The notes under the pieces: generated by a model | Database searches by the model: none | Told to the model about the DNA's origin: nothing | The model's input: the letters and a program-made list of their open reading frames with translations, nothing else | From: Eledone cirrhosa | Taxonomy: Eukaryota | Reading direction: 5' to 3' | DNA: 64,000 nucleotides | NCBI GenBank assembly: GCA_964016885.1 | Contig: OZ024743.1 | Span: forward strand, 37,076,001 to 37,140,000 | Shown: positions 11,198 through 42,745 of the stretch, piece by piece | Numbering within the stretch: the first letter of the stretch is position 1 | How the letters are laid out: each line of letters opens with the position of its first letter | Translations under genes and position numbers: made by a program

Positions 11198-11408
11198 TAA
11201 CGAAGGAAATGTGGTAAGGAACCAGGTGGACCATAACGCACCAAAGTACTCAATACTTGAGGTAGTAGAGTGGGTAATAGGAACCAGTAAGACCCCGACA
11301 GCTGAGCTCAAGCCGTTTCGACGGCTAATTCTGGACTAAATTCATTTAGTCCAGAATTAGCCGTCGAAACGGCTTGAGCTCAGCTGTCGGGGTCTTACTG
11401 GTTCCTAT
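11198..11408. mobile_element. Family A fold-back insert (hammerhead 3' half plus tail), copy 1
   Basis: Palindrome at 11277-11408; GAAA-cggct tgagctc agctg-TC at 11366-11388; between (TA)n tracts. Confidence 0.85.
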
Positions 11409-13029
11409 ATATATATATATATATATATATATATATATATATATATATATATATATATATATAGAGAGAGAGAGAGAGAGAGAGAGAGAGAGATATGTTT
11501 CTTTATTATCCACAGGGGCACAAAAGAAGGGGACAAGATAGATAGATAGATATACATATATATATACAGTTGATCGACTTTCGTCATATATATATATATA
11601 TATATATATATATATATATATATATATATATATATATATATATATATATATATATATATATATGGGTTTAAACTGAGTGTTTAAAGTTGAAAAGAATAAT
11701 ACAAGTAATTATGTCCGAAACTCTAACGACTTTGCTGATTCACTGCCTTAATGAAACTAATAAAAATCATAGATCAAAACACTAGGCAGAAGATAAATCT
11801 AAAGAGATTTATTTTAGAGCCAAATATTTTAAATTGCAATAGCGGATTGTATAGATAAAGTATATTCCTTTGATAAATTGAGAAATAAATCGTGTATCAT
11901 GGTTATATATCAATAACAATTCCCTAACAAATACAAAAAAGAAACAAAATAGGCTGAAATTTCTAAATAGATAATATCTCATCCAGTTCATAGACTAGAT
12001 AATGAAATCTTTTGTTAAATGGTATAACCATGATAATATTTTTAGAAATAATAAAACGTTTGTGTGTCGTTAAACAACGTTTTAAATAAACATACCGAAT
12101 TAAATCTATGTTAGGTCAGAAAATATTCTCAGTTTAATCTTATGTTTTATTTTGGCGTGTAAGACGTCATTAACTCTTCCATTACCAGATCTGTCAACTC
12201 TCCCCAACTGACGGGCAGATCTCCCACCCACTTTCTGGTAAGTGAGAGATGTCTTCTCTTGGGATTAGCTTTTTCATTATGTAAAATCTCTATTTTTCCT
12301 CATTTCTCTCCGTTTTAGGGCACTTTTTTTCCGTTTGTGTTTTTAGAAGTTTGAAGGAATTTAACAATATAACTAACTTTCTCATTATTAAGTTGCTGTT
12401 TGGAGCATAAAATAATAATGGAAGGTTTTTATCTAAATGTAAGCACTTTAAAATGATTAGCTATGCACCATAAAACCTGGGACGGTTTCAGGATGTTTGG
12501 TATCAAAAGAGTTACATTTTAATAAGAACAGAAATGTTATTTGTTGGTGGATGTGTGCTACCGTTTAAATGAGAGAGTAATGTTTCCAGCAGTAGTTAGT
12601 TCTTCACCGGGAAAATGTTGCAGGGCTTCCCTCGGTTACGACGAGTGTTCCCGTTGTTCGATTAACAGCATAGTCTGACCGTGAAAATAAGGTGCAAGTG
12701 GCTGACCATTCCACAGACACCTGTATTCTTAACGTAGTTCTGAGGTAGATTCAATGTGACACAGTGTGTGACAAGTGATGCCCTTTGAATCACAGCTACA
12801 ATTCATTTTTACCAGCTGAGTGGACTAAAGTAACTTGCTCAAAGACATAACCCACCGGCCTTATGATCGCCAGTCGAACAGTACCCACTAAGCCACGCTT
12901 CTTCACACTATCACGAAACAATGTTTTATAATTTGAGCACAAGGCCATCAGTTAGGGAGGAAAGTGCATTGTCTATATCGACTCTAATGTACTTGAGTGG
13001 TACTTTATTTTATTGATCGCTGAATGATG

Positions 13030-13210
13030 AAATGCCAACGCTTCCCACTTTATCCTGTACCTCGCCCTGGACTTGTCAGTTTTGTGGGCTTCTTTGGCTT
13101 TAAGTAGTCTCAAGCTGCAGATAACTAGATGGTGATCAGTTGACAGCTCAGCCCCTCTCTTAACACGAACATCCAGCACAGAATGAAAGATATCGGAGAC
13201 TAACAATTAT
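13030..13210 (-). mobile_element. RTE (Expander/Rex3-like) LINE fragment, end of the AP endonuclease
   Basis: VLDVRVKRGAELSTDHHLVICSL..RIKWEAL. Confidence 0.8.
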
Positions 13211-13499
13211 TGATCTCTCTCCCTGATTCCCAGTATACCAAATATTACGGGAGGGAAATCAGTCGATTATATTTATGTATACCCAAATTCTTAGCTGGCA
13301 TGTATTATTTGATTTTTTTAACACTGGAATGCTGGAAAGCGAAGTCAACTTTTGCCAGATTTGACCTCAGAATGCTCTGCATATTCTGCCGATCCACTTG
13401 CCTTGTAGTTGTATAAATATGTATTACCAATCGTATATGGAACGTTAACAAACTATTATACAGCCGGTACGAGGAAAAGAGTTAATAGATAATCAATCA

Positions 13500-40932: not shown

Positions 40933-41220
40933 TTAACCCTATCAATACTGATATTTTGTTAATGATATCTAACATGGTTAATTTTTATAAACTGGGAGAA
41001 CGTTATACCAGTAATATCCACATTGCTTAATATGATAAATAAGTGAACACAACTTAGGTTGATGACATAAACTAAATTATTTACAAAGCAATGAAAAAGT
41101 CAATTAGCTTTGCCAAAATACCGTTTTGTCACATCCCAATCGTTTTATAATAAAAAGAATTTTGTAGAATGCAAACTATATTTTGGGATCTATAGGTCTT
41201 TACAGTATTGAAATGGTTAA
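40933..41220. mobile_element. piggyBac-like MITE
   Basis: TTAA-CCCTATCAATACTG ... CAGTATTGAAATGG-TTAA. Similar TTAA-bounded relics at ~12170-12513, 54240-54500 and 55197-55385. Confidence 0.6.
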
Positions 41221-42547
41221 AAGGGTAGTGTTGGTGTTAATGTTGTTATTTTGGTTTTAACAGACACTCGTTGGTTACACAATTAAAAGTAAGACCAAAA
41301 ATAAAAATGAAATTAGTAATGGTGAGGGTGGGGAAAACTGCACTCTTGGTTGGATGACATATTTCACCTGCGTTGGACAAGATGGAGAAGGCCGGAGCAG
41401 ACCTGCCAACCTCTAAAAACGCAAATGGGGAGTGCCATGAAAAAAGTGTCCCAAAATCGGGAGAAATGAGGCAAAACAGAGGGATTTTACATAATGAAAG
41501 CTATACCCATTTTCACAAGAGAAGACATCTCTCACCCACCCCAAAGTGGGTGAGAGATCTCCCCGTGGGACGGGGAGAGTTGACCGGTTTGCCAAAGAAA
41601 ATCCAGTAATATCTGCAGTATCAACCATTTCGTCTCCTTCAGGCGTAATGCTACTATCCCAATTTACCGGGGTGAAACGACAGTCCTGGATTCGACGACA
41701 CCAGAGGACACCTTCCTCTTTATGACAAAAGGGTTTGATTTGAGAGATTTGACTATTATTTTTAGTTAGTCAAGTGACCATGTAACGGCTCCCTGGTTCA
41801 TCAAATCAGTGATTGGCTCAAGTTTGAGTGATTGAGTATGTGTGTGTTTACGATAATCGTAGAAAAGTGTACCTACCACCCACTAAATTATCAAAAATAT
41901 CTTCCATAGAAAGAACACTTCTGTATTGTGTGATAAACAAATGTCAGACAAAATGAAAAACTGATAGGCGTTCATACTTATTGAACACACAGAGAGAGCA
42001 CGTATATTCATCGTTTCATCATCCGGATATAGTTATATACTTTATCAAATCATTACACACTGAGGCATATAGACGGTAATGTGTAGATCATTAAGCAAAC
42101 ATGTGGGTGGATTTCACTGCATGGCATTTGGGCTACATGTTTACTATTATGGCGTTCGATTGACAACGCTGTGTGAGTGAATTTCGATTGAAGGAAACGT
42201 TGCGAAAGTCTATTGTGTGTGCGCGCGCGCGAGCGTGCGCGTTGTGTGTGTGTGTGTGTGAATATTTGTGTTTACATCTCTGGTGTTGGCTGTTCTTTAT
42301 ACAGTATAGCCTATCAGTTCGACAAGCAGAAATCGACAAAATATGTACTATACGGATGAAATGTTCTTGAGTTGAAATGATTAATTAAAACTTTAAAATA
42401 TGACGAAAATTAATGGAAATATTACCAAAATAAAGAATATATATGTGTGTGTGTGTGTGTGTGTGTGTGTGTGTGTGTGTGTGTGTGTGTGTGTGTGTGT
42501 GTGTGTGTGTGTGTGTGTGTGTGTGTGTGTGTGTGTGTGTGTGTGTG

Positions 42548-42745
42548 TGAAAAGCGTCAGGACCCTGACTGCTGAGCTCCGGCCGTTTCGACAGCTAGAT
42601 CCGAACTCGGATCTAGCTGTCGAAACGGCCGGAGCTCAGTCGTCGGGGTCCTGAGTCTTTTCATATTACCCACTCTACTACACTAAGTATCGAGTACTCT
42701 GGTGCGTTGTGGTCCATCTGGTATCTTACTACACCTTATTTGTTA
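42548..42745. mobile_element. Family A fold-back insert, copy 6 (variant subfamily)
   Basis: Palindrome at 42548-42663, centred on GATCCGA-AC-TCGGATC. Confidence 0.85.

Follow-up and report, generated by a model that had tools for sequence, protein, structure and literature searches.

Six short inserts in the 64,000-nucleotide stretch of octopus DNA analyzed here (the window; Eledone cirrhosa, contig OZ024743.1, positions 37,076,001 to 37,140,000) are very short insertions, two-armed in five cases, of a Hydra-type Penelope-like element (PLE), and in their formation both cDNAs likely ran off the probably capped 5′ end of an RNA that would begin inside loop II of the element's own hammerhead ribozyme. 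An earlier note on this DNA, made from the letters alone, was right about the origin of the inserts and probably wrong about the mechanism, for which it had held the ribozyme hairpin responsible.

Inserts in the window

Positions within the element are numbered on the sense strand with the G of the hammerhead GAAA as 0, and each stretch of the element in a single orientation is called an arm. The inserts (c1 to c6) consist of the following arms, in window coordinates:

11197 to 11341, minus strand: c1 tail arm, from the putative reverse transcriptase (RT) start site at +122 back to -22; subfamily Y2; 100% identity to the long copy L102
11341 to 11408, plus strand: c1 short arm, from -25 to the putative RT start site at +42; perfect 65-bp palindrome with the c1 tail arm
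22940 to 23011, minus strand: c2 tail arm, from +122 back to +49 only; ribozyme not reached
23010 to 23065, plus strand: c2 short arm, from -13 to +42; subfamily M; inverted, non-palindromic
24867 to 24922, minus strand: c3 short arm, from +42 back to -13; subfamily Y
24922 to 25063, plus strand: c3 tail arm, from -19 to +122
26172 to 26304, minus strand: c4 single tail arm, from +122 back to -16
33906 to 33972, minus strand: c5 left arm, from +48 back to -16, tail cut short; subfamily M
33972 to 34034, plus strand: c5 right arm, from -18 to ~+42
42549 to 42607, minus strand: c6 short arm, from +40 back to -18; subfamily O
42607 to 42746, plus strand: c6 tail arm, from -15 to +122

As the earlier note had described, these six inserts carry GAAA, helix III, TC, and GGGGTC and lack the 5′ box of the ribozyme. 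Five of the six are two-armed (all except c4). The four palindromes that it had listed are present (c1, 65/65 bp matched; c3, 54/54 bp; c5, 59 bp, and c6, 57 bp, these two with a few mismatches), although c2 is two-armed and inverted as well. Its statement that every copy halts 10 to 25 nt ahead of the GAAA holds as a stereotyped breakpoint but not for the long arm of c2, which ends at +49. The words that it had taken to be copy specific are marks of subfamilies Y2, Y, and O, with 7, 5, and 6 of the 157 tiles (see below) containing them. We named four subfamilies, Y2, Y, O, and M, the last taking in both c2 and c5. The 100% identity of c1 with a long Y2 copy marks the family as young or active. 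A (TG)-type repeat flanks one side of c5 and likewise one side of c6.

Parent element and its hammerhead

With c3 as the query, 30 loci were recovered, four of them reaching far upstream. Locus L061 contains, in order, an inverted pLTR and tail, a direct pLTR and tail, RT, a C-terminal GIY-YIG domain (frameshifted in this copy), a 3′ untranslated region (UTR) of ~1.2 kb, the hammerhead, and a terminus at +42 within (TA)n. In L299 we found a stop-free frame of 695 amino acids covering RT and GIY-YIG, with YRDD and VIYQC..YIGLT as well as RWRT (R for K), SDKTG, CNCPDRSIC (CxC-x5-C), CNLC (CxxC), and CKH (CxH). The layout of short arm and tail arm is repeated at kilobase scale in L299 to L301 (3/3). 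Homologs of the parent ORF amounted to 49 proteins with 35 to 54% identity, while pieces of it gave no useful match to Pfam and PDB sequences; no CCHH motif was seen by eye in the L299 endonuclease (EN).

The element thus has the single RT and GIY-YIG ORF of EN+ PLEs (L299) and their layout, with pLTRs in partial tandem, an inverted 5′-truncated copy, and a tail at one end (L061, L299 to L301, and 97 of the 102 pairs described below). It also has the protein features of the Hydra clade (C-terminal EN, RWK-type motif, DKT, CxCX5C linker, CxxC, and CxH) and its preference for (TA)n, with at least (TA)3 following 69 of 85 3′ ends. The PLE origin and the (TA)n target proposed in the earlier note were confirmed, as was its prediction of a parent with the 5′ half of the hammerhead downstream of a PLE ORF: long copies with RT and GIY-YIG lie in the same genome, they keep the 5′ half, and L061 has the expected layout.

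The parental CTGANGA that the note had also predicted was not recovered. Among the first 100 of the 6,983 arms retaining the 5′ box, counted by hand, TTGANAA occurred in 77, CTGANAA in 21, TTGANGA in 2, and CTGANGA in none. Judging from these copies, the core of the parent hammerhead is UUGANAA (U3-A8) rather than CUGANGA, with N7 free to vary; the C3-A8 mismatch of 21/100 rows is predicted to cleave poorly. U3-A8 is a described variant of PLE hammerheads (PMC4209133). Because the canonical CUGANGA core of the Hydra clade is absent from these 100 matches, we file the element, on its predicted protein and layout, as a Hydra-type PLE and not as a formal member of the clade. The family's motif does not appear in the part of the PMC8557442 supplement available to us. 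A non-LTR retrozyme, in which units carrying a complete active hammerhead lie in tandem, was rejected as a candidate, the stubs being head to head and without the 5′ box.

In its predicted structure the ribozyme is a type I hammerhead, as the note had it, in the U3-A8 variant, with three helices around the core, GAAA, a UH site, and its own predicted cut at +22/+23. The three-helix fold leaves 89% of cells paired versus at most 51% in slid controls (15 related rows, from which the structure itself was drawn), and three pairs of helix II are altered on both sides between subfamilies in a compensatory manner (same 15 related rows). The hammerhead shape is also the minimum free energy (MFE) fold of L102. 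Rfam at gathering scores gave no match in the window.

Arms end in loop II

The assembly that contains the window measures 3.0 Gb. It was sampled with 157 ten-kilobase tiles at fixed round coordinates (1.57 Mb), which held 95 arms, after dropping one at a tile edge and one internal self-match, from ~65 inserts. A rough extrapolation from the tiles, subject to clustering and some double counting, gives ~1.2 × 10^5 inserts in the genome. Most of the tile arms reaching -8 (60/69) stop between -22 and -8, with a mode at -18, and the stop rate in this zone is ~5.8% per nt versus 0.2 to 1.0% per nt in the other seven zones; only 7/95 tile arms go beyond -60. In a set of 222 arms, all reaching the GAAA (tiles, window, and pattern-picked loci, with six duplicate loci dropped), 32 end at -18 and 24 at -17, with at most one per position from -23 to -59. 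The breakpoint is as stereotyped as the earlier note had claimed, but the stops are located in loop II, where the 3′ strand of helix II has already been fully copied, and not inside helix II.

Exact head-to-head palindromic junctions with a center of 4 to 34 nt numbered 15,179 in the whole assembly, and read-backwards controls gave 0 matches versus 2,081, 12,894, and 15,179 real ones, so that the palindromic structure is far beyond chance. DNA reads from three Illumina runs (amplified and short) also contain opposite-strand joints at -18/-17, mostly of the non-overlapping type. RAD-seq depth rises ~25- to 40-fold across -18, a value biased by a probable restriction end at -11 and excluded as a count.

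Three other accounts of the ends were discarded. Hammerhead cleavage as the origin of the 5′ end leaves no edge at the predicted cut at +23 (stops, 6/80 in +23 to +42 and 5/79 in +1 to +22), a further concentration of long-arm stops at the +42 site has a hazard of only 0.3 to 0.65% per nt, and -18 is a poor match to the branch-point consensus.

A probable template end at -18

We picked 30 loci for a long arm, of which 18 had an inverted partner in view and 12 did not. The partner also extended beyond -30 in 17 of the 18, versus 9/69 in the tile background (P = 1e-10), and in 14/15 once three possible duplicate loci were removed; two of these 17 partners are fragments that lack a start site. 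This joint read-through indicates that the stop is probably a property of the template.

The base ahead of the end was informative as well. Where arms in the whole assembly have a non-T base ahead of -18, it is G in 5,317 of 10,598, part of the C class among them being the parental TCAGT variant. G precedes 18/32 ends at -18 versus 21/141 other ends (P = 3e-6), although under the strict filter, which removes ends whose five upstream letters may be templated, the excess is no longer significant in a small sample (5/10 versus 7/25; P = 0.26). With this caveat, an untemplated G is present at complete 5′ ends, which fits a capped start. A hand count of the first 50 of 1,787 double -18 junctions gave 7 blunt, 15 with a single C/G, 1 with a single A/T, 7 C..G (a G on each arm), 0 G..C, 4 with G on one arm, 2 with templated GAAAT, and 14 parent-like and A/T bounded. 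CAG, CTG, and CCAG inserts are found in the parent too, and a parental C at -19 in one subfamily (12/100 rows) could mimic the single C/G inserts, while leaving the C..G doubles and seven M-type singles unexplained.

TTAGT at -20 to -16 is the same in 4/4 subfamilies, with 10/23 loop columns identical overall. Position -18 is the A of a conserved TYAGTY (a TCAGT variant exists), which is Inr-like by consensus, and ~62 nt upstream all four subfamilies keep a CC(A/T)6GG box, by consensus presumably a CArG box. A TAA is conserved 14 nt upstream of TYAG, and TYAG doubles as a splice-acceptor motif. No conserved match to an HDV-like ribozyme, Pol III A/B boxes, DPE, or MTE was found by eye against their consensus. 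An untemplated 5′ G has been taken as cap copying in L1 and SVA (PMC4859970), and the Penelope promoter has been located in the pLTR (PMC2377424). We infer that Pol II probably starts at -18 within the pLTR, the G being a copied cap.

A genuine RNA 5′ end at -18/-17 that arises by cleavage or processing (a host nuclease, small-RNA slicing, or splicing at TYAG), with the extra base added by RT terminal transferase and no cap involved, seems unlikely. Such an origin would account equally well for the edge and the joint read-through; moreover, -17 is nearly as frequent as -18, YTAG with its upstream TAA looks like a 3′ splice site, and PLE pLTR introns abut the ribozyme (PMC4209133). Yet a spliced exon should begin at -16, whereas the arms retain the AG, no strong edge appears at the hammerhead's own cut, and the added base is biased to G.

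We consider quite improbable the mechanism of the earlier note, in which the folded hammerhead halts RT at a fixed place, and likewise a block by a protein bound to it. The edge does lie within the ribozyme, whose fold is conserved through compensatory helix II changes and is also the MFE structure of L102, and folded and unfolded states of the RNP could make both arms stop or pass jointly. However, helices I, III, and II have already been unwound before a stop 4 to 5 nt into the loop. The block is not supported, because helix II needs the 5′ strand in the RNA, and it is precisely such RNAs that are copied through, on both arms. Established RT behavior would place an untemplated G at template ends rather than at internal stalls, and the untemplated G at -18 points to the former. 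In a second family of the window (few copies), short copies start just 3′ of a TTAGTT upstream of a ribozyme-like motif, which also counts against a block.

Two arms and two putative start sites

The 3′ ends of the arms cluster at +42 to +44 and at +122 to +124. Almost all head-to-head pairs (97/102) combine one long arm (+122) with one short arm (+42), with three short-short and two long-long pairs, and in tiles and window alone the figure is 34/37 (P = 6e-8 versus random pairing). In PMC11167929 a pair of internal RT start sites delimits the tail, and both target strands are cut and extended; by analogy, +42 and +122 would be the two internal RT start sites of this PLE. Among 72 junctions there were 23 overlaps, 11 blunt joints, and 38 inserts, which often copy nearby element sequence; the joints seen are blunt, show microhomology of 1 to 5 nt, or carry a templated insert.

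Common subfamily variants are present in both arms in 26/27 cases versus 6.8 expected, which shows that the arms derive from one source locus, not necessarily from one molecule. To that extent the single template of the earlier note stands for the source, and one molecule is not implied. Private changes (119 in one arm versus 2 in both, age dependent) say nothing on a single RNA molecule because later mutation dominates. We regard one RNA for both arms as rather likelier than two RNAs of one source locus.

Fold-back, by which one cDNA (or an antisense template, as in PMC3846280) would prime itself and the asymmetry would come from later deletions at the palindrome center, is very doubtful. It requires the short arm to be nested in the long one, and the exceptions disfavor this origin, which the earlier note had also assumed: the short arm reaches further 5′ in 51/97 pairs, and in 24/97 the long arm never reaches the GAAA and does not cover the short arm; the short arm often holds sequence that its partner is missing. 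Palindromes are known to undergo center deletions, which could blur the nesting, and the long arm does reach further in 38/97 pairs; the 26/27 shared subfamily variants are in line with fold-back too. However, +42 also ends long direct copies, a G on both arms (7 of the first 50 of 1,787 junctions) demands two separate run-offs, and in L061 the direct arm has an ORF and the inverted arm does not, so that separate start sites for each arm remain the preferred reading.

Assembly or amplification artefacts, of which chimeric fold-back reads are a known kind, are already largely refuted and extremely improbable as the source of the palindromes, since the arms differ by age-dependent private changes, the junctions are diverse yet obey the fixed long-short rule, and the Illumina reads of three runs give opposite-strand joints at the same places.

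Model of insertion

In the model that we favor, the RT/GIY-YIG protein would nick both strands of a (TA)n run, a predicted dimer cutting and extending both, and each nicked end would prime one cDNA, at +42 or +122, respectively. Pol II RNA would begin at -18 in the pLTR, leaving no more than 60 or 140 nt between its 5′ end and the start sites, and such a pLTR-initiated RNA would carry the tail, and hence both start sites, solely near its 5′ end. Both cDNAs would run off the capped 5′ end as products of 60 and 140 nt, the cap being copied as the extra G, and their 3′ ends would then be trimmed and joined head to head via blunt, microhomology, or templated-insert joints. Long copies would come solely from templates extending past -18, by tandem read-through or by transfer across the -18 to +42 repeat. 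The arm ends, the pairing of long with short, the joint read-through, the extra G, and the joints are the directly seen basis of this scheme, and the smearing of ends over -22 to -8 obliges it to assume trimming.

A wider reading is offered tentatively, as a possibility that we do not expect to hold in full. Here, two-ended priming on one capped RNA, with one RT start site per strand, would yield cDNAs resembling retroviral strong-stop products; the promoter would split the hammerhead and leave cleavage to the 3′ pLTR copy alone, and the 60-nt repeat (-18 to +42) would let a run-off cDNA transfer to the RNA 3′ end, the missing step of pLTR regeneration. Failed transfers might then have left ~100,000 stubs, mostly ready-made hairpins.

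Comparison with known systems

L1 primes first at its poly(A) end, and its two arms are not known to overlap. In contrast, each of the two primings here would take place at a fixed internal site, and the two arms mostly extend to a common 5′ end and so overlap as a palindrome. L1 twin priming (PMC4859970) is similar in that both target ends prime cDNA, which leads to inversion, and in the extra G at the complete 5′ end.

Hydra-clade PLEs (PMC8557442) share the C-terminal GIY-YIG, RW(R), DKT, CxC-x5-C, CxxC, CxH, (TA)n, the inverted 5′-truncated copy, and the one-end tail, and differ in that the unit here is ~3.5 kb with a 1.2-kb 3′ UTR and an 80-nt tail (versus a typical 30 to 40 bp) and in the hammerhead, which here is U3-A8 with a long loop II and a full helix III. 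The octopus Hydra family of that paper has a different hammerhead, and its available text describes neither a fixed 5′ edge nor a mini form. Poseidon PAc (PMC11167929) likewise has two internal RT starts bounding the tail, both strands cut and extended, and a predicted dimer, and its insertion does not need hammerhead cleavage. That work was done in vitro and left the joining of the second end open, whereas in the genome analyzed here each end uses a single putative start site and a run-off point is apparent. Head-to-head pLTRs with a junction palindrome, and Inr-like pLTR motifs, were noted in Adineta vaga (PMC3846280), where they were read as self-priming on an antisense template, while our counts favor two sense-templated cDNAs. 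The Cercyon PLE hammerheads of Schistosoma (PMC4209133) resemble ours in the U3-A8 covariation, a bulge after G10.1, a long helix II, a palindromic loop III, and pairs on opposite strands 100 to 700 bp apart; unlike Cercyon, the predicted start site here splits the ribozyme, and most genomic copies hold its 3′ half only.

pLTRs in inverted orientation, palindromes at junctions, tails, (TA)n targets, and hammerhead pairs on opposite strands had been published (PMC8557442, PMC3846280, and PMC4209133). In our literature search, mostly outside subscription journals, neither a fixed run-off point of PLEs nor the cap G nor the rule of one start site per end was described. How PLE integration is completed and the pLTR rebuilt is stated to be open in PMC11167929 and PMC2377424, and this family offers tens of thousands of natural products under three rules that can be counted: each end has its one start site, the run-off base is fixed, and the arms read through jointly.

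If true, the model also explains why monomeric PLEs would rarely move as complete units, since most cDNAs made from their own transcript would measure 60 to 140 nt. The palindromic junctions, at least 15,179 in the assembly and with arms of 54 to 65 bp in four window copies, could be a major source of double-stranded RNA (dsRNA). As the host is an octopus, the stub palindromes may bear on the high genomic dsRNA potential and the hyper-editing reported in PMC5625713.

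Further repeat families in and around the window

Family A, the Hydra-type Penelope-like element (PLE) stubs, shares the window with two more stub-forming or ribozyme-bearing families and other repeats, and its own stubs recur in tandem at two loci.

Window 10020-10230 and 26440-26503: family C (second family)
Window 14929-15786 and 24615-24830: family B (third family)
Window 2614-4083 (minus strand): frames resembling RT and GIY-YIG
Window 492-1933, 27787-30181, 50384-51254 and 63512-63937: various RT fragments resembling those of LINEs
Window 6942-7370, 44136-45548 and 61679-62155: abundant SINE-like repeat, tandem units of 178-227 bp
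L208:264-671 and G000:C1:49978532-49978903 (G000 being the 3.0-Gb assembly that contains the window): tandemly repeated stubs separated by short (TA)n runs

Family C is built like family A, with (TA)n, a tail arm, a palindromic center and a short arm, and carries a hammerhead-like CCC-GTTAA-GGG-TGAA motif. Eight of its 22 rows, which include a few double listings of one insert, reach upstream, and the remainder begin no more than roughly 15 nt downstream of a TTAGTT. At one family C locus (L106), both arms end at the A of TTAGTT with a single C in between, a signature matching that of family A.

In family B, the GIY-YIG frame at 14929-15483 carries Hydra-like motifs; downstream of it come a minimal hammerhead with the canonical core CTGAGGA and then a (TA)n end. 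The (TA)n run of a shorter copy is also that of the two-armed family A stub c3, and a distinct palindrome with arms of about 38 bp lies immediately upstream of this copy. The minus-strand frames at 2614-4083 look like another PLE, judging from their motifs; a Pfam search of these frames gave no match.

Variation and junctions within family A

In about one-fifth of long family A arms (e.g., L037:1573), C3 faces A8 in the ribozyme core; speculatively, if A8 underwent A-to-I editing, pairing would be regained as C-I. The tandem stubs at L208 and G000:C1 probably originated by local duplication. Blunt double junctions at -18 (the A of TTAGT, counted from the G of GAAA) read CTAGTC, an Inr-like word, on both strands, and some tailed stubs might therefore be transcribed and re-mobilized as nonautonomous units.
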